In this document: piece after piece, positions 4,266 to 30,600 of the stretch
Position numbering within the stretch: position 1 is the first letter of the stretch
Layout of the letters: each line of letters starts with the position of its first letter
Source of the DNA: Dehalococcoidia bacterium
GTDB taxonomy: Bacteria > Chloroflexota > Dehalococcoidia > Bin125
DNA length: 64,000 nt
Assembly: GCA_963555985.3 (NCBI GenBank)
Contig: OY820591.1
Location: 512,001-576,000 of the forward strand
Direction of reading: 5' to 3'
Notes under the pieces: generated by a model
What the model saw: the letters and a program-made list of their open reading frames with translations, nothing else
Told to the model about the DNA's origin: nothing
Database searches by the model: none
Program-made: the position numbers and the translations under genes

Positions 4266-4674
4266 TCCTCAGTTCCTGCTCGACGAATCACTGGACCCCA
4301 ACGTGGCGAAGGCCCTGGCGTTGGTCGGCCATGACATCGTGGACGTGAAGACCGCAATCGATCCGGCCGGGGAGAAGCATCGGATTCTCGACCCCGAGAT
4401 CATCGAGTGGTGTCGCGTGCATGGATCCGTCTGGATACACGCCGACGATCGCGCCCGACGAGAGCACAGAAAACAGTTGCAGACCAGCGGTATCAGGACG
4501 TTGTGGGTTCGCCGACCAGGCGGTCGCATGACCGGCCGCGAGCAGCTACGCATTCTTGCGTTTGTCATCCCCAAGCTGCTCGACAACTACGAGCAGCAGC
4601 CGCGTCGGCGGCACTACCAGACATCGGCAGCCAATCCGCGCTCCACACCGTCCCTCAGACCGGTGGATATATAG
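4234..4674 (+). CDS. PIN-like (VapC45/DUF5615-type) putative toxin
   Basis: FLLDESL...ILDPEIIEW...VWIHADDR; overlaps the end of the DUF433 gene. Confidence 0.75.
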   Translation: MSGNDASELPNPQFLLDESLDPNVAKALALVGHDIVDVKTAIDPAGEKHRILDPEIIEWCRVHGSVWIHADDRARREHRKQLQTSGIRTLWVRRPGGRMTGREQLRILAFVIPKLLDNYEQQPRRRHYQTSAANPRSTPSLRPVDI

Positions 4675-4795
4675 TTCGATCGCACGACCATCCTCAACGA
4701 AGCCGACATTGACCGAATCGTCCTCAGATCACAAGCCCCGCCTCGAGCGGATCTTGCGCGACCACGTATCCTTACCCTGCCAACGGAGACCGCCC

Positions 4796-6529
4796 ATGAC
4801 CACCTGGACCAACCAACTCTACTTCGGCGACAACCTCAACGTCCTCCGCGAGCACATCCCCTCGGAGTCGGTCGACCTGATTTATCTCGACCCGCCGTTC
4901 AACTCCAACGCGACCTACAACGTGCTGTTCAAGGAGCGGTCGGGTGAGGATTCGGCGGCTCAGATTACGGCGTTCGACGACACCTGGCACTGGACCAGCG
5001 CATCCGAACTCGCCTTTCGGGAGGTGCTCGTCGACGGCCCCGACCAGTTGGGCAAGCTGCTCAAGGCGATGCGCGAGTTCCTCGGCCAGAACGACATGAT
5101 GGCCTATCTGACGATGATGGCGCAGCGGTTGGCGGAACTGCACCGGGTGCTCAAGCCGACGGGGAGCATCTATCTGCACTGCGACCCGACGGCGAGCCAT
5201 TATCTGAAGATGCTGATGGATGCTGTGTTCGGCCCGGAGAACTTCAAAACAGAAGTCGCTTGGAAACGAACGAGTGCTCATAGCGATACAAAGCAAGGCA
5301 GGCAACAGCACGGACGTATTCACGACCTATTGCTCTACTATGCCAAATCTGCTGAATGGACCTGGAATCCCATCTATACGGACTACGACCGAGAGTACGT
5401 TGAATCTGCCTACAGGCATGTCGAAGAGGGGATTGAGCGTCGATACCGGCAAGGAGACCTCACGGCCGCGAAGCCGGGTGGCGACACCTTGTATGAGTGG
5501 CGTGTCAAGCGACCGAAGGGTGGCGGTTGGACTGCGGATCTCGATGACGAATGGCAGAATCCGCTCGACGGATTCGAGTACAAAGGAGTGCCACCGTACT
5601 CGGGTCGGTACTGGGCGTACACCAGGGAGAACATGGTTCAATATGCGAAAGAAGGGAGACTCGTTTACTCTAGCACAGGGATGCCGAATTACAAACGTTA
5701 CCTGGATGAAATGCCAGGAGTTCCTTTGCAAGATTTCTGGTCAGACATAGGCCCTGTCGGATCCCGCGCCAAAGAGCGACTCGGCTACCCGACGCAGAAG
5801 CCCGAAGCGCTGCTTGAGCGCATCATCAACGCCAGTAGCAACGAGGGTGATGTGGTGCTCGATCCGTTCTGCGGTTGCGGTACCGCCGTCGCTGTAGCCG
5901 AGCGACTCAAGCGTCGTTGGATCGGGATCGATGTGACTCATATCGCGATCTCGCTGATGAAGCATCGGCTGCATGACACGTTCGGTACGGAACTGTCCGA
6001 CTACGCGGTTATCGGCCTGCCCGAGGATGTGGCCAGCGCCCGCGCGCTGGCGACCGAGAGCGAGCACGACGGGCGTTACCAGTTCGAGTACTGGGCGCTG
6101 GGGTTGGTCGATGCGCGTCCGGCGACGGGCAAGAAGGGCGCGGATTCCGGCGTGGACGGCTACATCAACTTCTTCGACGACCAAACGGACGAGGTCAGGC
6201 GGATCATCGTCCAGGTCAAGAGCGGCAAGGTGAATCGCGGCATGATCGCGACGCTGAAGGGCGACATGGAGCGCGAAGGGGCGGCGATCGGCATTTTCAT
6301 CACGCTCCAACCGCCGACCGAACCGATGAAGCAAGAAGCGCTTGGCGCGGGTTTCTACGAATCTGAGAGTCTGGCCGCCAATCAGTATCACAAGGTGCAA
6401 ATTCTGACGATTGAAGAGTTGCTGGAGGGCGCGCAGCCGGAGTACCCGCGCTTCCGCGGTCCGCAGACGTTCAGGCGCGCGCCGCGCCGAAGACGCCGCG
6501 AAGGTGTCCAACAAACCCTCGACACCTGA
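4796..6529 (+). CDS. Amino-group DNA methyltransferase (beta class) fused to an Mrr-like PD-(D/E)xK domain
   Basis: LIYLDPPFNS (motif IV), GSIYLHCD, YPTQKPEALLERII, VLDPFCGCGT (motif I), C-terminal DSGVDG...IIVQVKSG; ATG 4796 follows ggag. Confidence 0.9.
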   Translation: MTTWTNQLYFGDNLNVLREHIPSESVDLIYLDPPFNSNATYNVLFKERSGEDSAAQITAFDDTWHWTSASELAFREVLVDGPDQLGKLLKAMREFLGQNDMMAYLTMMAQRLAELHRVLKPTGSIYLHCDPTASHYLKMLMDAVFGPENFKTEVAWKRTSAHSDTKQGRQQHGRIHDLLLYYAKSAEWTWNPIYTDYDREYVESAYRHVEEGIERRYRQGDLTAAKPGGDTLYEWRVKRPKGGGWTADLDDEWQNPLDGFEYKGVPPYSGRYWAYTRENMVQYAKEGRLVYSSTGMPNYKRYLDEMPGVPLQDFWSDIGPVGSRAKERLGYPTQKPEALLERIINASSNEGDVVLDPFCGCGTAVAVAERLKRRWIGIDVTHIAISLMKHRLHDTFGTELSDYAVIGLPEDVASARALATESEHDGRYQFEYWALGLVDARPATGKKGADSGVDGYINFFDDQTDEVRRIIVQVKSGKVNRGMIATLKGDMEREGAAIGIFITLQPPTEPMKQEALGAGFYESESLAANQYHKVQILTIEELLEGAQPEYPRFRGPQTFRRAPRRRRREGVQQTLDT

Positions 6530-9869: not shown

Positions 9870-10649
9870 TCACCTGGCCGTGTAGCCGCCGTCGACCGGC
9901 AGGGCGATGCCGTTGACGAAGCTGGCGTCGTCGGAGGCGAGGAAGGCGGCGGCGGCGGCGATCTCTTCGGGCTGTCCCAAGCGTCCCAGCGGATGCAGCG
10001 AGGCGAGGAACTCTTCGGCTCCTTCCATCTCGCGGATTTGGGCGGTCATCGGGGTGTGGATGTAGCCGGGGCAGATCGCGTTGACCCGTACGTTGCGCGG
10101 GCCGTAGGTGACGGCGAACTGGCGGGTGATGCCGACGACGCCGTGCTTGGCGGCGACGTATGCGCCCGCGCCCTCCTCCACCTCCAGGTCAAGGTCTCGT
10201 ATCGATGGGCTGCTGAGCAGGCCGTTGAGGCCGGCGATCGAGGCGGTGTTGATGATCGAGCCGCCGCCGCGCTCGGCCAGCATCGCGGCTCCGTGGAAGG
10301 TGCCGTAGTAGACGCCGCTGAGGTTGACGGAGATGGTCTGATCCCAGCCGTACTGGGCGCCGCCGATGCCGGCGTTGTTGAAGAGCACATCGAATCCGCC
10401 GAGCACCTGAACGGTCTGGGCCAGGGCGTCCTTGACCGCATCCTCGGAGGTGACGTCGAGTTCCATCGTGGCGGAGCGTCCGCCGTGTTCGGCGATTTGG
10501 GCGGCGGTCGTCTGCGCGCCCTCCGCATTGATGTCGGCGCACATCACGGCCGCGCCTTCGGAAGCCATGCGCAGGGCGGAGGCGCGCCCGATGCCCGAGC
10601 CTGCGCCGGTGATCAGGGCGACGCGCCCTTCGAGTCGATCGATTGCCAT
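9870..10649 (-). CDS. Short-chain dehydrogenase/reductase
   Basis: TGAGSGIG, NNAGI, YVAAK, VNAICPG, LPVDGG. Confidence 0.95.
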   Translation of the reverse strand: MAIDRLEGRVALITGAGSGIGRASALRMASEGAAVMCADINAEGAQTTAAQIAEHGGRSATMELDVTSEDAVKDALAQTVQVLGGFDVLFNNAGIGGAQYGWDQTISVNLSGVYYGTFHGAAMLAERGGGSIINTASIAGLNGLLSSPSIRDLDLEVEEGAGAYVAAKHGVVGITRQFAVTYGPRNVRVNAICPGYIHTPMTAQIREMEGAEEFLASLHPLGRLGQPEEIAAAAAFLASDDASFVNGIALPVDGGYTAR

Positions 10650-10771
10650 CTCGTACTCCTGTCTGTGACTGAATGCGCGCAGGATAGAGCGAACCAGCGC
10701 GGCGCCGGGGCAGATTCGGTATCGCCGTTATCCTGTCACCGACAGCCTCACATTCACTGAAGGAGCGACTG

Positions 10772-11254
10772 ATGCCGATCGCTGCTGGAGACACCCTGCC
10801 CGACGTCAACGGGACCGTGATTGCGGACGGCCGACCGGGACCGGCCAACCTGCGCGAGCTGGTGGGCGACAAGAAGACCGTGATCTTCGGCGTGCCGGGC
10901 GCGTTCACGCCGACCTGCACGAACGATCATCTGCCGACCTTTGCCGTCGCCGCCGATCAGCTCAATGCGGCCGGGATTGAGCAGACGATCTGTATGTCGA
11001 CCAACGACATCTTCGTGCTTCAGGCCTGGAACGCGGCGCACGGGGCAGAGCACATTATGATGCTCGCCGACGGCTCGGGCGACATCACGCGGGCGCTGGA
11101 TATCGGACTGGATCTGAGCGGTCTGGGTCTGGGTTTCCGCTGCACCCGCTTCGCCATGCTGGTCGAGGGGGGCGTGGTCAAGGCCTTCCAGACGGAGCCG
11201 AATCCGGGCGCTTGCGCGATGACGTCGGCTGCCGCGATTCTTGAGCACGCTTAG
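10772..11254 (+). CDS. Peroxiredoxin (Prx5 subfamily)
   Basis: VPGAFTPTC, NDIFV, LADG, GLGFRCTRFAM; SD aaggag. Confidence 0.92.
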   Translation: MPIAAGDTLPDVNGTVIADGRPGPANLRELVGDKKTVIFGVPGAFTPTCTNDHLPTFAVAADQLNAAGIEQTICMSTNDIFVLQAWNAAHGAEHIMMLADGSGDITRALDIGLDLSGLGLGFRCTRFAMLVEGGVVKAFQTEPNPGACAMTSAAAILEHA

Positions 11255-11272
11255 CCCGGCGATGGCCGACAG

Positions 11273-11818
11273 ATGGCGGACGGAGCCGATTCGGCAGGGC
11301 TGAAGGCGGCCGCGCTGGAGCGTCTGCGCCGGCGTGATGCGGCGGCGCTTGCCCGCTACTCCGGCGTGCGCAGCGTGCATGGCTATGAGGCCTCCTGGTT
11401 CAACAACGCTACCTTTCTCTTTCCGCTGGCGGCGGCGCTGATTGCGGGGATTGTGTGGCTGGCGGCGGGCAGCGGCGAAGCGGGCGGAGCGGCGATCTTC
11501 TTCCTGGTGGTGACGGCGGCGATGCTGCCGGTGGTGTTTCTGACCTGGCAGCGGACGACGACCGCGATCGTGGTGCATGAGGCGGGGGTGACGGCGCTGC
11601 ATCAGGGTTTGGAGCAGCAGACGATCACGTGGTCGGAGTTGCGGAGCGTGCGGCGGATGGAGACGATGGGGAACGTGCGCTGGTATCTGGACGGGCCGGG
11701 TGAGGAGCACATTGCGGTTGAGGGCGAGATTGGTGAGCGGGAGGCGCTGCTTGAGGCCGCGCGTGCGGGTTTGGCGGCGAAACGGGAGGATCAGCCGCCT
11801 GCGGGCGGGACGGGCTGA
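11273..11818 (+). CDS. Hypothetical membrane protein (2 TM plus PH-like C-terminal domain)
   Basis: Two hydrophobic segments then IVVHEAGV...TITWSELRSV; its 3' end overlaps direct repeat DR1. Confidence 0.7.
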   Translation: MADGADSAGLKAAALERLRRRDAAALARYSGVRSVHGYEASWFNNATFLFPLAAALIAGIVWLAAGSGEAGGAAIFFLVVTAAMLPVVFLTWQRTTTAIVVHEAGVTALHQGLEQQTITWSELRSVRRMETMGNVRWYLDGPGEEHIAVEGEIGEREALLEAARAGLAAKREDQPPAGGTG

Positions 11819-11845
11819 GCGCCCGGATTGAGCATGGGGCGGGAC
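11791..11845 (-). repeat. 55-bp direct repeat DR1 (copy of the 3' end of gene 17863-18378)
   Basis: tcagccgcctgcgggcgggacgggctgagcgcccggattgagcatggggcgggac; 5 mismatches to DR3. Confidence 0.9.
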
Positions 11846-11859
11846 GATGGCTTCGGGGC

Positions 11860-14617
11860 TCAGGTGGAGGGGGCGTCTGAGGGGACTTGTTCGAGTTCGG
11901 GGGCGGTTTCGGGGACGACGATTGCGAACTCGGTGACGTAGGGGGTGAGGGCGCAGATTTGGTTGGGATCGTCGCTGGCGACCGGTTCGAGTCGCAGCCA
12001 GCGCCACTCCTTGTAGTCCCAGACGGCTACTTGCGCGTTGTCCGGCGCTTCATTGCGGGGCAGGCAGACCGTGAGCGGCGGGTCGAAGGGACGCTGGGCC
12101 AGGCGCACGCTGTTCATTCCTCGCTCCTCGAAGAAGTAGATGATCCAGAGATCGAGGTCGAAGATCGGGCTGGTGGGCACGGGGAAGTAGCGTTGTTCGC
12201 CCTCGGCGAAGCCGATCCGCGGGGTGTCGAGCCAACGGCGGAAGCGACGCTCCCACTCGTCCAGCGGGCCGGGCTTGGTCACGATGTAGGCGCCGACGGC
12301 GTTGTCCTGCACGTTCTGCGAGACGGCCTCATCCAGCGCGGGGAGCACGCCGTAGGTGAAGATCACGACGCCGCAGTTAGGGTTGCCGCTCTGCTCGCAG
12401 TCGTTCAGGCTCCGGGTCGGGAAGCGTAGGTCGACAGGCCCCCGCGTCGCGCCCTCGGCCCCGACTGCAGTGTCCGCGACGATCCGCGTCGGCGCGATCA
12501 GGCTGCGCAGCACGACCTCCACCGGCTCCTCTAGTTCGGCCTGCGTCTGATTGCCGCCCGGGACGATCGTCGTTCGTTTGACCGTCCAGGTCTCCGAGGG
12601 CAGCGATCCCGGCTCCGGCATCCGTCGGTCGGCGTCCCAGTCGTAGGTGGTCTCGCCGCTGCGCTTGGCCAGGATGTAGCTGTCCTTTTCGACCTCGTTC
12701 CCTTGATCATCCGTATCGATCCACTTGTCGAAGCGCATCATGAATTCGGGTGCCTGGTTCATTAGGAACTGGTCGGCCATACCTGCGTATCTGCGAATCG
12801 GGGGTAGCCAGCCCCAACTGAAGGTCGGCTCAGGCCCCAGGCCGTCGTCGTCCTGCAGCAGGTACTCGAAGATCAGCGTGTTGCTCTCGCTGCCGCTCAG
12901 GTACTTGGCCTTGACGATCTTCGTGGTCTGCTCGTCCTTCGATGTGCCGGTGGCGGTCAGGTAGGGCGCGCCGATCACCTTGACCGGCTGTTCGTAGGTG
13001 ACCGTGTAGCGGAAGCCGTTGGTCACGTTCGACTGAGCGACTGAGGTGATCTTGACGGGTAAGGTTACGTCTGCGTTGTAATCGTACTGTGCATACTGTG
13101 GATTGCCACAAATAACGGAGACAAAACCAAACGCGCCGCAAATGAATGAGTCGGTTGGCAGTTCGATCGCGTCGGATGTAACGGTCACCCAGCCGTTCGG
13201 GACCTTGTTGACGTCGTCCTGCGTCACCGTGTAGCGGAACTTGAAGATTTCGGAGGTCTGGCCCGACGAGCCGGTGTCACTATCGTAGGTCCCGTGGTAC
13301 ATCGCCTTGCGGGTGACTGATTCGGCGCCTTCGGTAATCTTGATCTCGATGTACGGCTTGTCGCCGCTGTACTTGATGTACGCGTTCGCGGTGAAGGCGA
13401 CGAAGACATCGATGGGGTAGTTCAACGTCCAGGTGCCGGTGGCGTGCATCGGGCTGGCGCGGCCCGCCTGCGGGATGCTCCCTTCGTAGGGGCTGTAGTG
13501 ATAGTTACCGAAGGAGACCCAGAGCACCCAGGGTCCGATTGGGTCGAGGTTTGTGCCCCCGCCCGAGTAGGTGGCCTCCCATCGCGGCACCTCGGGTGGT
13601 GTGGGGTTCTGCACAGCCGCGAAGCTGGAGTTGCCGCCTACGCCCCAGCTATCCGCCGTGACGCCGAGGGCCAGGGTGGCGCCGGCTGCGGTGCCGTAGG
13701 TGGGGGTGAACAAGACGCCCTTATGCACCCAGCCGTCGCGCGCCAGGCCGCTGTCCTGGAATTCGTGCTTGGTGGTGTAGTTGTAAAGGCTGCCGATGCT
13801 GCCGTTCACGGGGCCGCTGAAATCGCCCTTCGCGAAGTTGTGCGCATACAAGCCGGGGGCATGCACCCCGAGGTAGGTGAGCACATTGGTCGCCCCGGTC
13901 GCGTATTGCTCGCCGTAGAGCGGGTAGCGATCGTCGCGGTCGATCCAGTCGTTGCACTCAGTTCGTCCAGGCATGTAGGTTTCGAGCGCGCCGCGCACGT
14001 ACTGGGTGAGGCGGTACATGTCGGGTCGGTGCTTGATCTGGAAGTTGATCGTCGTCGCATCGCTCTGAACCGTCCCCGCCAGTGTGCGCAGTTCGAGCTG
14101 GTACTTCTTGTCGGGAAGCAACTGGCCGATGCGGATCGCGCTCTTGGTCCCGTAGTGGTGGAGCGTCACCAGCGAGTGATAGCGCGCGTAATCCTTGTCC
14201 TTGTTGGCTGGGTCGTTTGGATCCGGCCCAAAGGGCTCGTACTTCTCTGTCGTAGGAGCCCAGACGTAGATGCCTACGTCCCACGAGGCGCGGTAGACGC
14301 TGCCGTCCTCGTTCAGGACGCGAACGCGGTAGGCGGTCGCCGCCGGCGGGCCGGTGGGCGTGTCCCACATGAAGATCGCGCGGCCGCGAGGATCCCCAGT
14401 CAGGTAGGCAGGGCAGGCCTTCTCAGTGCTGCTGAGGTGCCTGAATCCGTGGATGCCCTGCTCGATCACTTCGAGGTTTTGGGGCGCGGCGGGCTTTTGG
14501 GCTTGGGCCGGGGCGATCAGGGCGAGGGCGCTGAGGACGGCGAGCAGGGCGCTCAGACTGAGCAGCCACAGAGGTGGTATTGCGCGGGGGGGGGGGGAGT
14601 TTTGACGTCACGCACAT
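11860..14617 (-). CDS. Large secreted surface protein A (signal peptide, FN3-like, Ig-like repeats); out of frame at a C12 tract as assembled
   Basis: The 869-aa ORF frame extends upstream to RAIPPLWLLSLSALLAVLSALALIAPAQA-QKPAAPQNLEV and meets TGA just before the tract; ATG 14617 joins this frame only with C11 or C14. Paralog of 14841-17619. Confidence 0.85.
14586..14597 (-). repeat. Homopolymer G12 (C12 on the coding strand), putative phase-variation tract
   Basis: Lies 20 nt after the start of ATG 14617, ahead of the signal peptide h-region. Confidence 0.75.
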
Positions 14618-14771
14618 CGTCCCAAAGGTGACAGATCCAGATCAGACGCACATAGGATAGTGAAATATGCGACTGCGGATCGCCCGAAGATCGCGCTGGG
14701 CCAGCATTATGGCTGGGGGCAGGGTCGATTGAGCGACGATTCAGGGGAGATTGGGGGGCGGAACGTGACGG

Positions 14772-14826
14772 TTAGCCGCCTGCGGGAGGCCTCGGTTGCG
14801 TGCCCGGATTGAGCATGGGGCGGGAC
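14772..14826 (-). repeat. 55-bp direct repeat DR2
   Basis: ttagccgcctgcgggaggcctcggttgcgtgcccggattgagcatggggcgggac; 7 mismatches to DR3. Confidence 0.9.
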
Positions 14827-14840
14827 GATGGCTTCGGGGC

Positions 14841-17619
14841 TCACGTGGAGGGGGCGTCTGAGGGGACCTGTTCGAGTTCGGGGGCGGTTTCGGGGACGAC
14901 GATCGCGAACTCGGTGACGTAGGGGGTGAGGGCGCAGATTTGGTTGGGATCGCCGCTGGCGACCGGTTCGAGTCGCAGCCAGCGCCATTCCTCGTAGTCC
15001 CAGACGGCTACTTGCGCGTTGTCCGGCGCTTCATTGCGGGGCAGGCAGACCGTGAGCGGCGGGTCGAAGGGACGCTCGGCCAGGCGCACGCTGTTCTGAT
15101 CGCGCTCGGCGTGGTGGTAGATGATCCAGAGATCGAGGTCGAAGATCGGGCTAGTGGTCACGGCGAGATAGCGTTGCTCGCCCTCGGCGAAGCCGAGCGC
15201 GCGGTTGTCGAGCCAGCGGCGGAAGCGCCGCCGCCACTCCTCGAGCGAGCCGGTTTCGGTGACGATGTAAGCGCCGTTGGCATTGTTGTAGACGGTCTGC
15301 GAGATGGCCTCGTCCAATGCGGGGAGCACGCCGTAGGTGAAGATCAGCACGCCGCAGTTGGGGTTGGCTTCGTCCTTGTCTTCGCAGTCGTACAGGCTGT
15401 GGGTTGGGAAGCGCAGATCCCTCGGTCTCCGTATCGCGTCTTCCGTGCTGCCAGCGTCTGCGCCGGGCTCGATCGCGCCGCCGCCGAGTGCCGTGGTCAA
15501 GGCGATCCGGGTGGGCGCGATCAGGCTGCGCAGCACGACCTCGACCGGCTCCTCCAGCTCCTGCGTCTGCTCGCCGACTGAGGCGGTCGCCGTCCGATTT
15601 ACCGTCCAGGTATCCGAGGGCACATTCGCCGGCATGCGCCGGTCGGCGTCCCAGTCGTAGGCGGTCTGGCCGGAGCGCTTGGCCAGGATGTAGCTGTTCC
15701 GCTCGACCTTGGTTTTGTTGCCCTGACCGTCGTCGACCTCCTCGAACCAGGGGTCGAAGCGCATCATGAATTCGGATACCCGATTGCTCAGGTTGGCGTC
15801 TAGCTGAGATAGCACGTCGTATTTGCTGCTGGCCGGCAGCCAGCCCCAGCTGAAGGTCGGCTCCGGACCCAGACCGTCGTCGTCCTGGAGCAGATACTCG
15901 AAGACCAGATTCTTGCTCTCGCTGCCGCTCTTGTACTTGGCTTTGACGACCTTCGTGGTCTGACCATCCTTCGAGGTGCCGGTGGCGGTCAGGTAGGGCG
16001 TGCCGATCACCTTGACCGGCTGCTGGTAGGTGACCGTGTAGCGGAAGCCCTTGGACACGCTCGACTGCGTGACCGAGGTGATCCTGACGGGCAGTGTGAC
16101 GTCCGCGTCGTCACTTGTGCCGCTGTCGCAATTGCTTGGTGGCGGCAACCAGGGGAAGCTGGGGCGGGGCGGTAGGCAAATGTGCGAGTCCGTTGGCAGC
16201 TGGATCGCGTCCGATGCGATCGTCACCCAGCCATTCCCGACGTTGTCCGCCACTGCGTTTGTGATCTCGTAGCGGAATCTGAAGATCTCGGATTTCCCTG
16301 GCATGGTTGGCCACTCGTCGTCGTATACCCCGTAGTACTTCGCCTGCACGGTTTCCGATTTCTCGCCTTCCGTGATTTTGAGCTCGATGTAAGGCTCGGC
16401 GCTGTCCCAAGTGATGTTCGTGTTGCTGGTGAAGGCGACGAAGACATCGATGTTGTTGTTCTCCTGCCAAGGGCCAGTGCCGTGCATTGGGCTTTCTCGG
16501 CTGTACGCAGAGTTTGCTATCCAGTAGTGCTGATAGTTGGCGAAGGCGACCCAGAGCACCCGGGGGTTGCTCGAGCCCGAGTAGGTGGCTTCCCAGCTTG
16601 CCGAGAAGCTGAGATTGGAGGTGATCCCGTCCACCGGCGCGCGCACGCCCCAGCTGTCCGCTTTGACGCCGAGGGTCAAGGTGTCGCCGGCGCTGGCGTT
16701 GCTGTCTGGGGTGAAGAGGACGCGCTTGTGTCCGGCGATCCATCGGGTCATGGTCAATGCTTGGTCCCGGAAATGGATATGCTTAGCGTCTCTGGTGTAG
16801 TCGAACACCGTGCCAATACTGTCGTTTCCCTGAATGCTGAAATCTGCCTTCTCGAAGTGGACGGGACGGTTACTCGCGTTGTCGTCGTATGTGTTCAGGA
16901 CGACGACCACCTCGGTCGGCCCGGTGACGTACTGTTCACCGTAGAGCGGGTAGCGCGCCTCACGGTCGATCCAAGACTCTGGGCCGGTGTCTTCTCTGGT
17001 GTGGTTTTCCAGCGCGAAGCGCGCGTACTGGGTGGTGCGGTACAGGCTGGGACGGTGTTTGAGTTCGACATCGGCCGTGACGCTGTCGCTCTCGGTTGTC
17101 CCTGCCACGGCCCTCAGTTCGAGCCGGTACTTCCGGTTGGGAAGCACCCACAGGTTGCCGATTCGCAGGGCGCTGGTCGCGCCGTAATCGAGCAGCATCA
17201 CGTCCGAGTTATTGGGGTGGTTGGTGAGGCAACAGTTGTAGTCCCACTCTCCGTGGGCGTAGTCGTTCGCCGGGTCGTAGGTGAAGATCGCCACATCCTT
17301 CCAGGCGCGGTACTGCGTCCAAACGATGAGGTTGCCGCTCGGATTGCCTTTCCAGAGCTTGATCTTGTATTTGGTCACGCCCGCCCCGCTGGGCGGCGTG
17401 TCCCAGGTGAAGATCGCGCGGCCGACGAGTGCCTGAGCGTAGCCGCCCGCGACGGTGTAGCCGTAGATGCCCTGTTCGATCACTTCGAGGTTTTGGGGCG
17501 CGGCGGGCTTCTGGGCCTGGGCCGTGGCGATCAGGGCGAGGGCGCCGAGGACGGCGAGCAGGGCGCTCAGGCTGAGCAGCGCCAGACGAGCTGAATTGCG
17601 GGGGGGGGGGGGCACACAT
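14841..17619 (-). CDS. Large secreted surface protein B, paralog of A; C13 tract directly after ATGTGTG
   Basis: 924-aa ORF from GTG 17615 with signal peptide LALLSLSALLAVLGALALIATAQA; ATG 17619 is in frame only with C12 or C15; last ~75 aa nearly identical to protein A. Confidence 0.88.
17600..17612 (-). repeat. Homopolymer G13 (C13 on the coding strand), putative phase-variation tract
   Basis: Same relative position as the tract in paralog A. Confidence 0.75.
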
Positions 17620-17765
17620 CCGGACTCACGTTTCAGATGAAGAGAAAGTTACGTCTGATGCATGATATGAGAATTTTTTGTTGCGGGTGGGTCGCGGCGT
17701 TGGGTTGATTGGGGGTTATGGGTAGGGCTTTTGGTCTTGCGCGGTTGTGACGGGGGTGGGGGAGC

Positions 17766-17819
17766 GGACCCCCTCTGTCGCTGCGCGACATCTCCCCCCG
17801 CACTGCGGGGGGAGAGGGG
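17766..17819. repeat. REP-like double hairpin, family A
   Basis: ggaccccctctgtcgctgcgcgacatctccccccgcactgcggggggagagggg. Confidence 0.8.
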
Positions 17820-17862
17820 AAAGGGATGATCGAGGGAGGGTTGCGGTTGGCTGGAAGTGGGG

Positions 17863-17917
17863 TTAGCCGCCTGCGGGGGGGACGGGTTGAGTGCCTGGAT
17901 TGAGCATGGGGCGGGAC
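17863..17917 (-). repeat. 55-bp direct repeat DR3 (the current 3' end of gene 17863-18378)
   Basis: ttagccgcctgcgggggggacgggttgagtgcctggattgagcatggggcgggac encodes SRPMLNPGTQPVPPAGG-stop. Confidence 0.9.
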
Positions 17918-18378
17918 TCGGCGGGGAGGACGATGGCGGCGGTTGCGAGTTCGCCATCCTCGTCGAGGATCACGGCGACGGCTGCGCCGGCCTGGATGCT
18001 TGAGGGATCGACGCGCTCCAGGCGCAGGAGGAAGGTGGAGTCTTCGCGCAGGTGGAGGACGGAGCGTCCGGTGACGGTTTCGAGGACGAGCTTGCCGCCG
18101 GAGATCGAGACGACTCGTCCGGTCAGGACCTGGCGGCCGAGCAGGCCGTCGGTGTGTCCGAAGGGGCTGAGGCCGCTGGAACCCAGGACGAGCGCGGTGT
18201 TGGGGTGGGCGGCGGGGTCGATCTCGACTTGCCGGCGTCCGGCGACGACGCTTTCGGCGATGACGAGCTCTTCGGCGCTGGGCTGGGTGGCGACGACATC
18301 GGAGCCGACGAACCAGCCGCCGAGGCCGGCTCCGCCCAGGACGGCGAGGGTGAGCAGCCAGCCGAGGATGCGTCTCAT
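17863..18378 (-). CDS. Membrane-anchored hypothetical protein with OB-fold-like C-terminal domain
   Basis: N-terminal TM; LTGRVVSISGGKLVLET...SSIQAGAAVAV; 4-nt overlap with the upstream gene. Confidence 0.75.
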   Translation of the reverse strand: MRRILGWLLTLAVLGGAGLGGWFVGSDVVATQPSAEELVIAESVVAGRRQVEIDPAAHPNTALVLGSSGLSPFGHTDGLLGRQVLTGRVVSISGGKLVLETVTGRSVLHLREDSTFLLRLERVDPSSIQAGAAVAVILDEDGELATAAIVLPAESRPMLNPGTQPVPPAGG

Positions 18379-18830
18379 TCGTCCGCTCCGCGCTCGATGG
18401 CGGCGATCGCGTCATCGCCGGTGAGGGCCTGTCCGTTGGGGATGATCACGATGCCGGTGGTGATGAAGCTGTTGACGTTGTCGTCGGTACCGCCGACGAC
18501 GATCCAGTCGCCCGGGCTGACGGCGTCGGTCCAGATTGAGCTCATGGCTTCGACGACGGCGTCGCGGGTGAAGCGGATGGGGATGGAGGTGTCGCCGTCG
18601 CGGACGATCCAGGCGTCGCCGTCGCGGGAGGTGACGAAGCCGACGACATCGCCTTGGGGGGCGCCGTCGCTGCCGATGCGGGGCTGTTCGGCGGTCTCGT
18701 AGACGCGGATGCTCTCGGTGGATTGGGGCGCGCCCCACTGGTAGCCGGCGCCGAGCATGGCGCCGAAGACGACGGCGGCGATGGGGATGATGAGGAGGCG
18801 TGAGCTCCAGCCGCTCAAGCGTTCACGCAC
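18375..18830 (-). CDS. Membrane-anchored hypothetical protein with OB-fold-like domain
   Basis: N-terminal TM; VVGFVTSRDGDAWIV...AVSPGDWIVVGG. Confidence 0.75.
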   Translation of the reverse strand: MRERLSGWSSRLLIIPIAAVVFGAMLGAGYQWGAPQSTESIRVYETAEQPRIGSDGAPQGDVVGFVTSRDGDAWIVRDGDTSIPIRFTRDAVVEAMSSIWTDAVSPGDWIVVGGTDDNVNSFITTGIVIIPNGQALTGDDAIAAIERGADE

Positions 18831-18901
18831 GTGTCGGCTCTCGTGTTTCCGGGGGTTGGTGTTGTGTTGGCGCGGTGATCATGGGGTGTTTGTGGGTGGG
18901 C

Positions 18902-18958
18902 GGACCCCCCTCTGTCGCTGCGCGACATCTCCCCCCGCGATGCGGGGGGAGAGGGGGA
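18902..18958. repeat. REP-like double hairpin, family A
   Basis: ggacccccctctgtcgctgcgcgacatctccccccgcgatgcggggggagaggggg. Confidence 0.8.
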
Positions 18959-18997
18959 GGAGGGCTGCGGAGGCCTTTGTAACACGATCTGCGCGCT

Positions 18998-19092
18998 CCG
19001 TCATTGCCGCGCTCCGCCGCGGCAATCTCGCTGTACGGGCGACGACGGTGCAGATCACGGCGAGATACCCGCGGCAAGCGCGGGTATGACGG
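18998..19092. repeat. CGTC-tagged REP doublet (REPIN-like), family B
   Basis: ccgtcattgccgcgctccgccgcggcaatctcgc-[spacer]-gcgagatacccgcggcaagcgcgggtatgacgg; copies at 33899-33997 and 39188-39286. Confidence 0.85.
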
Positions 19093-19183
19093 TCCTTTGA
19101 TTCACGCAACGGTCTCGCTGCACAGCAGAGGGCGGACCGGGGTCCGCCCTCTGGGTTTGGTTGGGTCGGTTGGCCTTTCTTGG

Positions 19184-21325
19184 TTAGGTGGCGAAGCCGG
19201 CGGCTTCGAGGGCGTCGGCGACGTCGGCGAGCTCGATTTCTTCCAGCTTGGCGCGGCTGGGGACGCAGGTGTCCACATCCCAGCCGGAGGCGTTGAGGAA
19301 GTCGGTTTCGAGGGTCTCGATGTCGAGGATGACGTCGGCGAGGGGGCCGGTCTTCTGGACGGTGCCTTCGCCGCCCCAGAGGCGGGGTGGGGCGAAGCGG
19401 GCGCGGGGGTTGTCGCCCTCGCGGACGGTGAAGGCCATGCGCAGGTTGGCGATGCGCTCGCCGGCGCGCTGGAGCTCTTCGCCGGACATGTCCCAACCGG
19501 TGACGGCGTTGATCCACTGGGGGAAGCGGTCGGTGGGGGCGGCCATCATGATGAACTGGCACATGCCGGTGGAGTTGGAGATGTGCATGTACTCAGAGGC
19601 GCCCTTGTGGTGCTCGCCGCGGTTGTCGTAGTCCTTGAAGTCGCGCGGGGCGGCGGGGTAGGCGGGTCCGCCGTAGCGGGAGTTGCCCTCGTACTGGGTG
19701 TGGCGGGCCGGGGTGGGGTCGAGCTTGTAGGTCGTCCAGTACTCCGGCTGCAACTTGGCGTCGTGCATGGGCAGTTCCTGGCCGCCGACGTCGGTGCGGA
19801 ACTCCTGGGCGCGGTCGTCGCCGTTCTTCTCGTCGATCTTGGCAGCCGCGACCTGCATCCCGTCGGCGAGCAGGTCGCCGAAGCCCTCGCGCTTGCCGAT
19901 CAGGTGGAGCATCTCCATGATGCCGTCGTCGTTGCTCCAGGTGAGTTCGACGCCGCCGGTGTCTTCGAGGTCGATCAGGCCGTTCTCGAAGCACTCGATG
20001 GCGAAGGAGATGGTGGTACCGGCGCCGATCGTGTCGAGGCCGTACTCGTTACACCAGTGGTTGGCGGCCTGCATCATGTCGATGTTGGCGGAGAGGTTCA
20101 TGGTGCCGAAGGAGGCGACGGTCTCGTACTCGGCGCGGTGGGTGTCGACCGGGTACTTGAACACGCCCTTGTCGTGTCCGGCTTCGGCGAGGCCTGGCGC
20201 GACGGTGCCATGCGGCGATTCGATCGACTCGGCGCCACAGGCCATGGGGCAGCGCCAGCAGCCGTAGCTCTTGTGGCGGACGGCCTTGCCGTTGACGTCG
20301 ACGGCGCGCGGGGCGGGGGAGTGGTTGGGGTCGATCGGGGGCATCCCCGTTGCGGGGTCGATTTCGAGTTCGGCGTGAGTCATGCGGGTGGCGTTGAACA
20401 TCATGCCGGACATGGAGTCGACTTCGGGGAAAACGTCGACGCCGACGCCGCCCCAGTTGCGGACGGGGGAGTCGCCGTTGTGGGCGGAGCCGGTGCTGAT
20501 GCCGGTGGTGCCGAAGCCGGCGAAGAAGTCGCGCAGGGGAGCGATGAACTCGTTGCGGGACTGGCGGGCCAGTTCGCGCACGCCGGTGTCGCGCGCGAGC
20601 ATGTTCTCGCGCGGGGTACCGCCGGCCTTGACGACGACGGCTTTGACTTTCTTGGAGCCCATGACCGCGCCGACGCCGGAGCGGGCGGCGAGGCGGCCGT
20701 GCTCGTTGCAGATGCCGGCGAGGTAGGAGAGTTGCTCACCGGAGGGGCCGATGCAGGCGACCGAGGTCTTTTTGCCGTAGAGCTCCTTGAAGGCGTTCTC
20801 GACCTCGATTGCGCCCATGCCCCAGTACTCGGAAGCGTCCTCGATCGAGACGTCATCGCCGTCGACCAGGATGTAGACGGGGTTCTCGGACTGACCGTAG
20901 AAGAGGATGCCGTCCCAGCCGGCGAACTTGAGGTAGGGGCCGAAGTCGCCGCCGCAGTTGGCGTCGCCCCAGCCGCCGGTGGAGGGCGACTTGCAGACGG
21001 CCTGGAAGCGGTTGCCGAAGATTGGGGTACCGGTGAGCAGGCCGGGCATGAGGCCGAGCACGTTGTCGGGGCCGAGCGGGTCGGCGCCGGCGGGGATGCG
21101 GTCGAAGAGCAGGCGCGCGCCGATGCCGTAGCCGCCGAGGTAGTCCTTGTACATCTGCTCGGGCAGGTCTTCGCGCTCGACTGCGCCCTCGCCCAGGCGG
21201 ACGTTGATGATTTTGCCGTTGTAGGCGACTTCGCTGGGACTCCACTCGCGATCCGCAAACGGATCGGTGGCTTCCGCTGCGGCGTCGTCGCCGTTGCCGC
21301 CGGGTACATTCGCCATTTCTGCCAA
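19184..21325 (-). CDS. aor: Aldehyde:ferredoxin oxidoreductase family (tungstopterin)
   Basis: YLGGYGIG, KSPSTGGWGDANCGG, CIGPSGE, AARSGVGAVMGSKKVKAV, CWRCPMAC, EYET, GLDTI, TGMCQF; alternative ATG at 21316. Confidence 0.92.
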   Translation of the reverse strand: MAEMANVPGGNGDDAAAEATDPFADREWSPSEVAYNGKIINVRLGEGAVEREDLPEQMYKDYLGGYGIGARLLFDRIPAGADPLGPDNVLGLMPGLLTGTPIFGNRFQAVCKSPSTGGWGDANCGGDFGPYLKFAGWDGILFYGQSENPVYILVDGDDVSIEDASEYWGMGAIEVENAFKELYGKKTSVACIGPSGEQLSYLAGICNEHGRLAARSGVGAVMGSKKVKAVVVKAGGTPRENMLARDTGVRELARQSRNEFIAPLRDFFAGFGTTGISTGSAHNGDSPVRNWGGVGVDVFPEVDSMSGMMFNATRMTHAELEIDPATGMPPIDPNHSPAPRAVDVNGKAVRHKSYGCWRCPMACGAESIESPHGTVAPGLAEAGHDKGVFKYPVDTHRAEYETVASFGTMNLSANIDMMQAANHWCNEYGLDTIGAGTTISFAIECFENGLIDLEDTGGVELTWSNDDGIMEMLHLIGKREGFGDLLADGMQVAAAKIDEKNGDDRAQEFRTDVGGQELPMHDAKLQPEYWTTYKLDPTPARHTQYEGNSRYGGPAYPAAPRDFKDYDNRGEHHKGASEYMHISNSTGMCQFIMMAAPTDRFPQWINAVTGWDMSGEELQRAGERIANLRMAFTVREGDNPRARFAPPRLWGGEGTVQKTGPLADVILDIETLETDFLNASGWDVDTCVPSRAKLEEIELADVADALEAAGFAT

Positions 21326-22138: not shown

Positions 22139-23530
22139 ATGAGACAGCTTCAGCAGACCTTCGCCGCGTTTGGCGTGCGTGATTTTCGCTTCATGTGGGG
22201 CGGCTCGCTGTTGTCGGTGACGGCGTTCATGACGTCGTTCTCGCTGATTCCCTCGGTCGCGTATGAGCTGACCGGCAGCTACACGGCTGCCGGGATCGCG
22301 ATGCTGGGTTCGGGCATTTCGCAGACGCTGCTGGGGCCGATCGGCGGGGTGATCGCCGACCGTTACCGGAAGAAACCGCTTGTGGTGGTTGGTCAGGCGA
22401 TGCCCGGCGTTCTGCTTGGGGCGCTGGGCACGCTGATTGTCACGGATTTGATCTCCGTGCCCCTGCTGGTGGTGGCGACGCTGGTGATGGGGGCGGGGTT
22501 CTCGCTGATGGGTCCGGCGCGGCAGGCGTGGACCGGGTTCATCGTGCCGCGACGACTGTTGCCGAATGCGGTCGCGCTGCAACAGATGTCGATGAACACC
22601 GGCCAGGTGCTGGGGCCGACGCTGATCGCCCTGTTCGGGCTGTTCATGACGCTGGAGGGGCGCAACACCGGCATTCTCTTCCTCGTGGTCGCATCGTTCT
22701 TCGCGATCGTGGTGCCATTGACGGCGTCGATTCGCACCGAAGGGCCGGCCAAGCCGATCGCCGAGCGGCGGGCGATGTCGGTCGAGTTCCTGGAGGGTCT
22801 TCGCTACCTGCGCTCCAATCCGCGGCTGCGGATTCTCTGGGTCTACTTTCTGCTGATCGTGGCCTGCGGCTGGGGTTTTCAGACCTTGCTGCCCGGCATT
22901 CTGGCGGAGGAGTTTGGCCGCGCTCCGACCGATGTCGGTCCCACGTTCCTGATCTTCGGGGTCTCTTCGCTGGTGATTAACATCCTGCTGGCCGGCGCTG
23001 TTTCAGGGCGTTGGGCTTGGCCGTTGCTGCTGATTATGGGCGCGGTGATGGCGATCGGCTTCTGGCTGGTGGCGATCGCGCCGGGCTACGGGATGTTCTT
23101 GATCCTCGGCGCATTCATCGGCGCCGGTCGTTCGGGCACGATGCTCGTTAACCAGTCGCTGATGATGGCGAACACGAGGCCGGACTACTTCGGCCGGGTG
23201 ATGTCGCTGGCGATGATGGCCTTCGGTTTCCAGGCGTTGTTCGGCCCGGTCTGGGGCGGGATCGCGGACGCGGTGGGCGGGCCTGAGACGATGGCGATGA
23301 TCGGCGTGATCGCGGCCGGGGCGACGGCGCTGATGTTCTTCGGCTGGCTGCGGACGCGGAATTTGCCGCTGGAAGCGGGAACGGCCGCCGCCAGTATGGG
23401 AGGTCGAGTGGGAACGACGGTACAGCGTCCTGTGGCGGCGGCCTCGGCCAACGGCCGGGACCCGCAGCCATCGTTCGCCAGTCAGCTCGCGCCGGTGGCG
23501 TTGATGGATCCGCAGAAGGTGCGGTCATGA
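22139..23530 (+). CDS. MFS transporter, paralog 1 of 7
   Basis: 12-TM pattern, GGVIADRYRKK motif A, GPARQAW, PDYFGRVMS; tail FASQLAPVALMDPQK. Confidence 0.93.
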   Translation: MRQLQQTFAAFGVRDFRFMWGGSLLSVTAFMTSFSLIPSVAYELTGSYTAAGIAMLGSGISQTLLGPIGGVIADRYRKKPLVVVGQAMPGVLLGALGTLIVTDLISVPLLVVATLVMGAGFSLMGPARQAWTGFIVPRRLLPNAVALQQMSMNTGQVLGPTLIALFGLFMTLEGRNTGILFLVVASFFAIVVPLTASIRTEGPAKPIAERRAMSVEFLEGLRYLRSNPRLRILWVYFLLIVACGWGFQTLLPGILAEEFGRAPTDVGPTFLIFGVSSLVINILLAGAVSGRWAWPLLLIMGAVMAIGFWLVAIAPGYGMFLILGAFIGAGRSGTMLVNQSLMMANTRPDYFGRVMSLAMMAFGFQALFGPVWGGIADAVGGPETMAMIGVIAAGATALMFFGWLRTRNLPLEAGTAAASMGGRVGTTVQRPVAAASANGRDPQPSFASQLAPVALMDPQKVRS

Positions 23531-24942
23531 GCCGGCAAGCCGGCCGTTGGGGCGGCGCGTTCGAGTCGTTTGGGCACCGCAACTACCGCTATCTCTGGGG
23601 CGGGTCGCTGCTGTCGACGACCGCCTTCATGACGACGTTTCTGCTCGTGCCGATCGTTGGGTACGAGATCACGGGTTCGTATGCGCTCTCGACGCTCGCG
23701 CAGATGGGCAGCGGGCTGTCGATGTTTTTTCTGGGGCCCTTGGGCGGGGTGATTGCGGATCGTTATCCGAAGAAACCGTTGGTGTTGGCGGGGCAGATTT
23801 TTCCGGCGCTGCTGATCGTGGCGACGGGCATCCTGATCGTGACCGGCCTGATCACGATTCCGCTGTTGTTTGCGGCCACGCTGACGATGGGCTTCGGGTT
23901 TGCGCTGATGGGTCCGGCGCGGCAGGCGTGGTTGGGCGAATTGATTCCGCGCCAGTTGCTGGCGAACGGTGTTGCGTTGCAGCAGATGTCGCAGAACATC
24001 GCGCGGGTGCTCGGGCCGATGCTGGGCGCGATCATCGTGTTCGCCGGGGTGGCTTCCGGCTGGCTCTACCTGTCGGTCGCGGGGCTGTTCCTGATCGTGG
24101 TTCCGCTGACGACGATGCTGCCCTGGACGAAGCCGCCGCGCGCGGAGGGCGATCAGCCGCGCCGATCGGCGTTTGGCGATCTGATCCACGGGTTTGGCTA
24201 TCTGCGCACGAACCGCAGGCTGCGTCTGCTCTGGCTCTACTGGATGGTGATCGTCGTCTGCGGATTTTCGATCAACGCGCTCACGCCCGGGATCATGGAT
24301 CGGGAGTTCGGGCGCGATCCACTGCAAGCCTTCATCGTCTTCCTGCCCTTTGGGATCGCCTCTGTCCTGATCAGCATTCCGCTGGCGGGGTTGATGAATG
24401 GTCGGTTTGCCTGGCCACTGTTGCTGATCTTCGGCGTCGCCTCGGCTGTGACTTTGTGGGCGTTTGCGCTTGCACCGTCGTTCACGCTGCTGATCTTGCT
24501 GGCGATTCCGGTGGGGGCGGCGACTTCCGGGGTGATGTTGATCAACATGTCGCTGATGATGACGAACTCACGCGCCGAGTATTTCGGGCGGGTGATGTCG
24601 TTCATCATGCTGGGCTACGGGATGCAGTCGGTGATGGCGCCGGTCTGGGGCGGTCTGGCGGAGTGGCTGGGCGGGCCGGAGGCGCTGATGTCGGTCGGTG
24701 TGGTGGCGTTGATTGCGACGGCGCTGATGACGGTGGGTTGGCTGAGGACGCGGCATTTGCCGTTGGAGGTTGGGACTGCGGCGGCTGAGGTCGAGCCGGA
24801 ACGGGCGCGGGTGTCGAGTCCGCGTCTGCGCCGACAGCCGGTACCCGCTTTTGCCGCGCAGGTGGCTCCGGTCGTGCTGATGGAAGGTCAGAAAGCAGGC
24901 GAAGCGACGGGCATGGGCGGGATTGTCGCAGGGGGTGACTGA
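23527..24942 (+). CDS. MFS transporter, paralog 2 of 7
   Basis: Same motifs; ATGA overlap; tail FAAQVAPVVLMEGQK. Confidence 0.93.
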   Translation: MSRQAGRWGGAFESFGHRNYRYLWGGSLLSTTAFMTTFLLVPIVGYEITGSYALSTLAQMGSGLSMFFLGPLGGVIADRYPKKPLVLAGQIFPALLIVATGILIVTGLITIPLLFAATLTMGFGFALMGPARQAWLGELIPRQLLANGVALQQMSQNIARVLGPMLGAIIVFAGVASGWLYLSVAGLFLIVVPLTTMLPWTKPPRAEGDQPRRSAFGDLIHGFGYLRTNRRLRLLWLYWMVIVVCGFSINALTPGIMDREFGRDPLQAFIVFLPFGIASVLISIPLAGLMNGRFAWPLLLIFGVASAVTLWAFALAPSFTLLILLAIPVGAATSGVMLINMSLMMTNSRAEYFGRVMSFIMLGYGMQSVMAPVWGGLAEWLGGPEALMSVGVVALIATALMTVGWLRTRHLPLEVGTAAAEVEPERARVSSPRLRRQPVPAFAAQVAPVVLMEGQKAGEATGMGGIVAGGD

Positions 24943-29163: not shown

Positions 29164-29173
29164 CCTGAGGCTA

Positions 29174-30583: not shown

Positions 30584-30600
30584 CGGGTAGCGTAGCGCGA

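Follow-up and report, generated by a model that had tools for sequence, protein, structure and literature searches.

Organization of the G1/G2 locus

In the genome of an uncultured Dehalococcoidia bacterium, a stretch of 64,000 nt (assembly GCA_963555985.3, contig OY820591.1, positions 512,001 to 576,000; called here the window) contains two convergent host genes, X and Y, whose 3' ends are separated by a block of 6.1 kb. The block carries two large paralogous genes, G1 and G2, and is bounded and divided by three direct repeats, DR1 to DR3 (Table 1). The original prediction, which was made from the letters of the sequence, described this arrangement as an array of cassettes delimited by copies of the 3' end of a host gene, and proposed that an uncharacterised system of cassette accretion may have built it.

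Table 1. Features of the G1/G2 locus, with positions in the window.
Feature	Position	Strand	Remarks
Gene X	11273-11818	+	ORF (open reading frame); conserved small membrane protein, no Pfam family; in 59/61 family genomes
DR1, X-linked copy of the junction	11770-11845		live X tail 11770-11818 and dead Y tail 11791-11845; the minus strand reads SRPMLNPGAQPVPPAGG and a stop
Spacer, DR1 to G1 stop	11846-11859		14 nt; read from the sequence
G1	11860-14617	-	secreted protein, orphan family; open frame 11860-14607, likely ATG 14615-14617 out of frame
Poly-C tract of G1	14586-14597	-	12 nt (G12 on the plus strand); between start codon and signal peptide
Intergenic region upstream of G1	14618-14771		last ~21 nt (14751-14771) a decayed X tail with the ancestral TAG end
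DR2, middle copy of the Y tail	14772-14826		non-coding; reads SRPMLNPGTQPRPPAGG and a stop
G2	14841-17619	-	paralog of G1; 924 aa from GTG 17613-17615; conserved ATG 17617-17619 out of frame
Poly-C tract of G2	17600-17612	-	13 nt, encodes PPPP; ahead of the signal peptide
REP-like palindromic element upstream of G2	17769-17820		main cause of the greater length of unit 2; alignment gap
DR3, live end of Y	17863-17917		last 17 codons and stop of Y; ORF and codon comparison
Gene Y	17863-18378	-	ORF; small, conserved; membrane helix at the N terminus; no Pfam family; in 58/61 family genomes

A repeat search of the window detects a single family, with three 58-nt copies at 11788-11845 (the reference copy), 14769-14826 (81% identical) and 17860-17917 (90% identical). 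When 71-nt probes were compared by blastn-short with the whole assembly (11 contigs, 3,334,195 nt), just these three sites were recovered, and all other matches were of 19 nt or less. Thus, the three repeats are real, and the further copies of the 55-mer for which the original prediction had proposed a search do not occur elsewhere in the 3.33-Mb genome. The spacing between the repeats is 2981 and 3091 nt, which gives two tandem units of about 3 kb, each with a single minus-strand gene for a secreted protein. The stop codons of G1 (11860-11862) and G2 (14841-14843) each lie 14 nt from a repeat, as first reported.

The repeats are copies of the X/Y junction

DR3 is the live end of Y and reads SRPMLNPGTQPVPPAGG followed by a stop. 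In the same frame, DR2 ends in ..TQPRPPAGG and DR1 in ..AQPVPPAGG, again before a stop codon. A codon-by-codon comparison, which reproduces exactly the three readings given previously, finds five changed codons between DR3 and DR1 (three synonymous, one T to A replacement, and a TAA to TGA stop) and five between DR3 and DR2 (four synonymous and one V to R, GTC to AGG). Changes private to one 55-mer number 1-2 in DR3, which is coding, 3-4 in DR1, half of which now codes for X, and 5-6 in DR2, which is non-coding. These lineage-specific changes are star-like, and their order, DR3 < DR1 < DR2, is the one expected from constraint and neutral decay. Over their right 25-30 nt, DR1 and DR2 do not differ, and in the right 25 nt DR3 departs from them at one position.

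The homology between DR1 and DR2 reaches 21 nt leftward into the tail of X, with 15/21 positions identical, a value equalled at 0.0125% of the positions in the window. Thus, what was copied is the X/Y junction and not the tail of Y alone. The remnant of X beside DR2 is still X-tail-like and ends in TAG (..GAERDG and a stop). The sequence to the left of DR3 has no significant similarity to the X tail when aligned without gaps; with gaps, it matches DR2 at approximately 16/23 positions by manual count. As read from these alignments, the duplicated junction would comprise about 76-100 nt, made up of at least 21 nt of X tail and 55-75 nt of Y tail. The spacer begins with GATGGC, a 6-nt string also present in Y at 17932-17937, which is 14 nt further on and behind a GGAC..GGAC repeat. 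By this lone and weak 6-nt match, the 14-nt spacer may be Y-tail sequence that remained after a slippage deletion of 14 nt, in which case the copy of the Y tail would once have been about 75 nt long. A quasi-palindrome, CCGCC..GGCGG, is seen in DR1 and is absent from DR2 and DR3, and thus there is no conserved hairpin in the repeats.

The ancestral stop context of X, TTAG, is kept in DR2 and DR3 and is TCAG in DR1. Because of this TAG to CAG change, X runs on for 9 codons (QPPAGGTG and a stop), antisense to the dead tail of Y. The overlap of DR1 with the X stop, which had been taken as the mark of an ancestral tail, is present, but the tail of X is an extended one. The extension, at 11792-11818, is also found in three relatives (proteins P0088, P0090 and P0213), and in each it is complementary to that relative's own variant of the Y tail. 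Since extension and Y tail share the same nucleotides, the C-terminal ends of the X and Y proteins co-vary.

The X/Y junction in relatives

In the sister genus, X and Y abut in 19/19 loci dissected. The TAG of X and the stop codon of Y share two bases (YTAG) at 11 of the 19, a gap of 4-62 nt separates them at seven, and one was not scored. At the loci of other species, taken from named Dehalococcoidia/Chloroflexota records of metagenome-assembled genomes, the matches to X and Y end -28 to 144 nt apart with no insert (33/33). Within the same genus, X and Y are found together on contigs of 1,672 nt (P0213 with P0008), 2,422 nt (P0211 with P0217), and 2,880 nt (P0089 with P0221), where contigs of equal size are assumed to be one contig; these relatives are 88-89% identical to X of the window and 86-88% identical to Y. 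Contigs of 1,672-2,880 nt are too short for a 3-kb unit, so at least three same-genus contigs are empty at X/Y. In addition, a metagenome contig from a run of another study joins position 11730 to position 18005 (depth 23.5), although its short side measures only 34 nt.

The repeats thus copy a junction that abuts in relatives, and the 6.1-kb block from DR1 to DR3 is a lineage-specific insertion with a duplicated target, placed at the abutting 3' ends of two conserved genes. Because the junction was duplicated, X and Y both keep complete tails. The original prediction had called for an empty allele and for replacement tails, and both are observed. Its further expectation, alleles with other cargo or another number of cassettes between X and Y, finds no counterpart in any relative examined (0/33 other-species loci occupied). 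For a near strain, X (96% identical), Y (99% identical) and both G genes lie on contigs of one size, 12,142 nt, which indicates that this strain carries the same two-gene array. In 10 large clusters of X proteins, no member lies on the contigs of 9,231 or 1,981,355 nt, which are among those of the G homologs.

G1 and G2 belong to a rare family of secreted proteins

The ORF listed for G1 (11860-14469) is truncated; the signal peptide lies upstream of it, out of frame with the ATG at 14615-14617. G1 and G2 are 63% identical as proteins in a genome-search match and 57% identical by BLASTP. Both carry a Sec-type signal peptide, ..LLSLSALLAVLGALALIATAQA followed by QKP. In Pfam scans with E up to 1, no family was found for G1, G2, the C-terminal 220 aa of G, X, Y, or the neighbor of Y. 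A length-restricted search recovered four proteins of the G family among 5.8 billion clusters, and a search of 1.84 billion representatives gave 26 matches, only about six of which cover parts of the N-terminal 700 residues. The C-terminal ~190 residues constitute a domain common to two other secreted proteins of the genome, one of which has three FN3 repeats, and to about 20 other representative proteins. Among 40 relatives G was not found, apart from the C-terminal domain in two of them, and an alignment of G detected no relative in the GTDB genome contigs or the JGI metagenome contigs.

From the signal peptide and the shared C-terminal module, we infer that the G proteins are surface proteins. 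The ESM Atlas gives weak FN3/Ig-like leads only for G, with a best score of 0.83. An AlphaFold2 model of G2, built from a 6-row alignment, consists mostly of beta strands at a mean pLDDT (predicted local distance difference test) of 37.6; it is unusable and is the basis for nothing said here. The GC content at third codon positions (GC3) is 0.85 for G1 and 0.84 for G2, within the 0.73-0.92 of the host genes.

Three other loci of the genome with the C-terminal domain of G or with a poly-C tract (L081-L083) have no gene-tail repeats around the gene. At one of them (L082:4428-5857, corresponding to C1:2455428-2456857), the protein with the C-terminal domain of G contains about ten tandem repeats of 141-147 nt (47-49 aa) and has a weak beta-propeller-like Pfam match.

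Poly-C tracts and probable phase variation

A long run of C's, which the original prediction had not noted, stands near the 5' end of both G genes. In G1, the ATG at 14615-14617 is out of frame at the present 12 C's and would be in frame at 11 or 14. For G2, the present 13 C's leave the ATG at 17617-17619 out of frame, and 12 or 15 would bring it into frame; the GTG right before this tract is in frame. Such runs exceed what the genome otherwise contains: there are 146 G/C runs of 7 nt, 20 of 8 nt, and five of 9 nt, yet nine of 10-25 nt. Four of these nine lie between the start codon and a signal peptide or membrane helix (G1, G2, C1:2103836, and C1:3097255), and two or three more are located directly upstream of genes for exported proteins.

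The tract at C1:2103836-2103848 belongs to a 1,443-aa FN3-repeat protein and is out of frame at 13 C's, and that at C1:3097255-3097264 to a 458-aa membrane protein, in frame at 10. The other G/C runs are at C1:124706-124722, C1:1058195-1058219, C1:860035-860044, C1:1287458-1287467, and C1:2017496-2017505. Together with the G tracts, these seven further homopolymers of 10-25 nt may represent a genome-wide set of phase-variable loci.

Homologs of G from other organisms keep the tract at other lengths (..SHSPPPARQRL.. in P0003 and ..SHFTPPPPPARQRL.., with PPPPP, in P0190). The gene calls of P0001 and P0002 lack the full signal peptide. One assembled metagenome contig has a 1-nt gap somewhere in 14467-14769. 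Judging from the position and the lengths of the tracts, G1 and G2 are probably phase-variable through slippage at poly-C.

Phase-variable contingency loci with homopolymer tracts at the 5' end of genes are exemplified by Neisseria, Haemophilus, and Campylobacter. The G1/G2 locus shares with them a homopolymer in the 5' coding region whose length would set the reading frame, an excess of such tracts over the genome distribution, surface-protein genes as the predicted targets, tract lengths that appear to differ between alleles, and tandem paralogs with conserved ends and variable middles. It differs in its host, an uncultured, high-GC, environmental member of the Dehalococcoidia, and in that switching is a prediction from the sequence. 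A search of the full-text literature returned no paper with a title on phase variation by homopolymeric tracts in Chloroflexi.

Exchange between the units and between lineages

The identity of the two units is mosaic. At the nucleotide level, the signal peptide region is 94% identical, the upstream regions and the N-half 50-65%, the segment 16100-15900 87-92%, and the last ~250 nt 97-98%; the intergenic regions are 50-57% identical. Synonymous divergence (dS) between G1 and G2 follows the same course: it is 0.05 for the last 60 codons and 0.2 for the first 60, lies at 0.34-0.67 in the middle, and reaches 0.6-1.0 across most windows of the N-half, where the ratio of nonsynonymous to synonymous divergence (dN/dS) is 0.55-0.9. 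Because DR1 and DR2 match fully in their right 30 nt, the 3' conversion tract crosses the spacer and ends inside the repeat. The two units are thus tandem paralogs with conversion tracts, the pattern of concerted evolution.

This tract also bears on the idea that the copies of the Y tail have been kept for a function of their own, either as a 3' untranslated region or terminator, or as a read-through extension past the TGA of G (..APST, stop, APKPSSRPMLNPG..PPAGG, stop). In both units the tail is in frame with G behind the stop, and the right 25 nt are, as described above, nearly invariant among the three repeats. However, the chance of being in frame is 1 in 3, and the two units are not independent. 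Furthermore, the identity of the right part is continuous with that of the 3' end of G (97-98%) and is therefore explained by one conversion tract; the repeats contain no terminator-like site and have no Rfam match; and there is no redox motif around the TGA. Selenocysteine insertion or read-through at this TGA was considered and rejected as unsupported. Overall, a retained function of the tails is very improbable.

Segments of G also appear to have moved between lineages. The N-half of G1 is nearer to P0002 and P0003 (58-79%) than to G2 (47-55%), and the middle of G2 is nearer to P0003 (77-92%) than the middle of G1 is. P0002 and P0003 are approximately 96% identical over aa 17-300 and 480-640 (manual count), while the X proteins of their hosts are only 86% identical, which argues that segments of G move between species. 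In the near strain, P0001 is 95% identical to G2 and P0004 is G1-like. P0004 contains a G2-like patch (columns 661-720, 81% versus 98-100% elsewhere), for which an assembly chimera is possible. Low-depth contigs that switch between G1 and G2 coordinates (12426 to 15476, 14382 to 17460, and 16103 to 13152) may be recombinant forms, third alleles, or chimeras, and were not counted.

These comparisons are relevant to the suggestion that the array entered once, as an element with both genes and the internal repeat, or that it is an old, vertically inherited array precisely lost in relatives. The identity of G to P0003 (63-65%) is like that of Y between those lineages (~65%), the GC3 of G1 and G2 matches that of host genes, and a crossover between DR1 and DR3 would leave a perfect empty site. 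Nevertheless, such a history is quite improbable. It would require independent loss in the 33 other species and in at least three same-genus lineages; G was not found in the 40 relatives, bar the C-terminal domain in two, or in the GTDB representatives; and segments of G at ~96% identity where the host X proteins have 86% argue for transfer and not for descent.

Tandem duplication is common in this genome, as indicated by two other places. At 22139-31944 of the window, 4 kb from the array, there are seven tandem plus-strand ORFs of 447-475 aa, and the two that were scanned encode transporters of the major facilitator superfamily (PF07690). A duplicated small gene is found at L081:1225-2695 (C1:1968224-1969694), where a 300-nt segment recurs, 97% identical, with a period of 722 nt; an additional 80-nt repeat at this place ends in TAG, and the whole looks like a recent small tandem duplication of a gene end.

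Recombinases and other elements near the locus and in the genome

Pfam scans of 17 different ORFs at 3594-34885 found no integrase or transposase. Their products serve in metabolism and transport, apart from a single methylase-nuclease fusion. Window positions 1-40000 contain no tRNA or transfer-messenger RNA (tmRNA) gene, and Rfam gives no match in 10500-19500. An attC hairpin and intI are absent, and the sole strong inverted repeat in the units is a REP (repetitive extragenic palindromic)-like element, at 17791-17815. Pfam, Rfam, and inverted-repeat results thus agree with the statement in the original prediction that the locus lacks an integrase, a transposase, and attC-like hairpins. A promoter and terminator consensus scan of 11600-18500 yielded nothing useful and no terminator-like site in the repeats.

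The original prediction had also proposed scanning the genome for recombinases. The genome, which is 96% complete, contains just two PF00589 tyrosine recombinases (332 and 348 aa; 164 and 156 bits), both far from the locus and, judged by size and score, XerC/D-like, and one weak PF00239 match of 29.5 bits to a 504-aa ORF that resembles a large serine recombinase (C1:1052690-1054204), more than 500 kb from the locus. The 25-nt poly-C tract at C1:1058195 is some 4 kb away from this last ORF, which may be the integrase of a prophage or island. Joins of repeat to repeat were not found among the assembled metagenome contigs of four runs, and assembled contigs drop rare forms such as circles.

The REP-like element is about 50 nt long, with the core TCTCCCCCCGC..GCGGGGGGAGA. 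It has 212 blast matches in the genome and reaches a depth of more than 1000 in metagenome contigs. It also occurs at 18928-18952, and a similar hairpin is located in the X/Y gap of the relatives L013, L019, and L025. Further away, at 4556-6529, a 657-aa protein fuses an N6/N4 DNA methylase to an Mrr-type restriction endonuclease. It is encoded beside a DUF433 protein and may be a defence gene.

Origin of the array

Together, these features are best explained by a lineage-specific, hypervariable, and probably phase-variable surface-protein locus that has been shaped by homologous recombination, an explanation to which we assign a probability of roughly 0.55. In a first step, a gene of the orphan family G would have entered the abutment of X and Y, duplicating about 76-100 nt of the junction and preserving both host ends. 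The two junction copies would then have served as substrates for RecA-type unequal recombination, which added the second unit. Subsequently, gene conversion between the units would have kept the signal-peptide region and the last ~300 nt alike while the N-halves diversified, and segments would have been exchanged with alleles of other lineages. Finally, slipped-strand mispairing at the poly-C tracts would switch G1 and G2 on and off independently of each other. It is known that unequal crossing-over between flanking direct repeats amplifies genes and that gene conversion keeps the ends of units alike; homologous unequal recombination, within the locus or with DNA from elsewhere, suffices to account for the array. 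The polarity of the insertion, the duplicated junction, the mosaic of identities, the rarity of the G family, and the position and excess of the tracts are observations, and the recombination mechanism, the phase switching, and the surface location belong to the interpretation. The change from repeat-gene-repeat to repeat-gene-repeat-gene-repeat is that of a tandem amplification. Two aspects of the locus depart from that model: the middle repeat is the most divergent one and has a residue of another lineage's live gene, and the bodies of the units are much older than the repeats appear.

Several observations weigh against this explanation. The repeats differ by 9-18%, the upstream regions can barely be aligned, and dS in the N-half is 0.6-1.0. 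Since the bodies of the units are far more diverged than the repeats, an origin in situ needs a later conversion of the repeats or a replacement of the bodies. Among the three repeats, DR1 and DR3 resemble each other most (91%) and have GTC in common at the codon that is AGG in DR2, a copy that would be expected to derive from the other two. The 17 residues of DR2 are the live Y tail of P0008, from a same-genus relative whose site is empty. All four single-base differences between DR2 and DR3 fall at third positions, which has a chance of about 1 in 81 at random, or 0.045 when the triple codon is included. If DR2 had been dead throughout, about five changes would be expected at non-synonymous sites, and two are seen (rough Poisson p of ~0.1, which does not settle the matter). 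A target duplication of ~76-100 nt is typical of site-specific integration at the end of a gene and not of illegitimate insertion, and therefore the first insertion may have used an integrase-bearing element that has since decayed. A G homolog, P0003, and an X ortholog of another genus, P0119, lie on a contig of 75,200 nt, contigs of equal size again being taken as one, which hints that G is tied to the X/Y site across genera. Lastly, tract lengths of 12-13 nt are within the range of assembly error, and the on/off states of G1 and G2 are accordingly not established.

For the second unit, two histories can be considered under homologous recombination. Duplication in situ is possible, at somewhat less than even odds. 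Recombination with DNA of a relative that carried a diverged unit is more doubtful. The order of decay among the repeats, the conversion between the units, and the frequency of tandem duplication in the genome favor growth in situ; the divergence of the unit bodies relative to the repeats, the GTC common to DR1 and DR3, the match of DR2 to the tail of P0008, and its third-position differences speak for the arrival of a diverged unit. Either history needs one extra step, the conversion of repeats in the first and import in the second. Both are of kinds that are seen at the locus, and neither requires a dedicated recombinase.

The observations on DR2 and on the target duplication lead to another explanation, the serial site-specific integration of integrase-less cassettes by accretion of the type known for CIMEs (cis-mobilizable elements). 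In this scheme, each unit would have been a circle with G and an attP that copies the junction, a recombinase would have acted in trans, and the next unit would have entered the att copy of the first. In size and in location, at a gene 3' end, the repeats are as expected for att sites of integrative elements, and tandem arrays with integrase-less members are described for IMEs (integrative and mobilizable elements) and CIMEs and for the ssrA islands of Dehalococcoides. Integration would account for a DR2 that matches the live tail of P0008 with single changes that are all synonymous, for repeats less diverged than the cassette bodies, for the movement of G segments between species, and for P0003 and P0119 on a contig of the same size (75,200 nt). 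However, the locus has no recombinase, and the genome has only the two Xer-like proteins and the weak serine ORF. There is no fourth copy of the 55-mer. The site is empty in 33/33 other species and on at least three same-genus contigs, and no other cargo is seen there. In addition, other genes with the same C-terminal domain lack flanking gene-tail repeats, the cassettes are paralogs of a single family with converted ends, and the near strain has the same two genes. Serial integration is thus unlikely. The uncharacterised cassette-accretion system of the original prediction is likewise not borne out, since there is no recombinase near the array, no fourth repeat, and no other cargo, and the site is empty elsewhere.

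Relationship to known systems

The nearest parallel within the same bacterial class is given by the ssrA islands of Dehalococcoides, which are described as lying in tandem behind the tmRNA gene, with 20-bp repeats of its 3' end, and as a major source of strain-level difference (PMC3146451). As reported there, a serine-recombinase module (DsiB, 540 aa) is present in 16 of 31 islands and lacking in 15, and the cargo is diverse, including rdhA and CRISPR (McMurdie et al. 2011, PMC3146451). The G1/G2 locus has in common with them tandem units bounded by a direct repeat of a gene 3' end. It differs in its target, the junction of two protein genes, in the length of its repeat (55-76 nt), in its cargo of two paralogs, and in having no recombinase module.

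Elements that have lost their integration genes and retained attL and attR are known as CIMEs, and tandem accretion has been described for streptococcal IMEs and integrative and conjugative elements (ICEs) (Guedon et al. 2017, PMC5704250). Arrays of this kind, as portrayed in that account, are built by a known ICE or IME integrase that is usually encoded by at least one partner. In contrast, the locus has neither partner nor integrase, and its units measure merely 3 kb with one gene each. With an integrative element at a gene 3' end, the locus shares attL/attR-like repeats and empty sites, but it has no recombinase and no varied cargo. Because no recombinase and no variety of cargo were found, the locus is not classed as a member of these groups, yet it may work as islands and CIMEs do. 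It also differs from integron cassettes, as it lacks attC hairpins and intI/attI.

A further possibility is that a small mobile cassette without a recombinase uses the X/Y junction for docking. Such a cassette would consist of one phase-variable orphan surface-protein gene and a junction copy from which both flanking genes receive replacement tails, and would be exchanged between Dehalococcoidia lineages and stacked in tandem by a recombinase acting in trans or purely by homology of the junction copies. We regard this as rather unlikely.

Implications

The X/Y junction illustrates how the overlapping ends of two convergent genes, once duplicated, allow an insertion that leaves both genes unharmed. 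If the cassette interpretation were true, a very small, recombinase-less mobile unit would join the known modes of island stacking in Dehalococcoidia, and the locus would be a minimal platform for surface-antigen cassettes in an uncultured lineage.

As a phase-variable, recombining surface-protein locus, which is the explanation favored here, the G1/G2 array is a new instance in an unusual host. It constitutes a clear presence/absence polymorphism in an uncultured family of Dehalococcoidia that is known from metagenomes only. Its 6-kb block encodes two fast-diverging secreted proteins, with a handful of relatives among 1.84 billion representatives. Surface variation of this kind is best known in host-associated pathogens, and its usual interpretation is that of a response to phages, predators, or a host. 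In this lineage, the poly-C tracts and the array suggest variation of the surface by on/off switching and by the swapping of segments across lineages.

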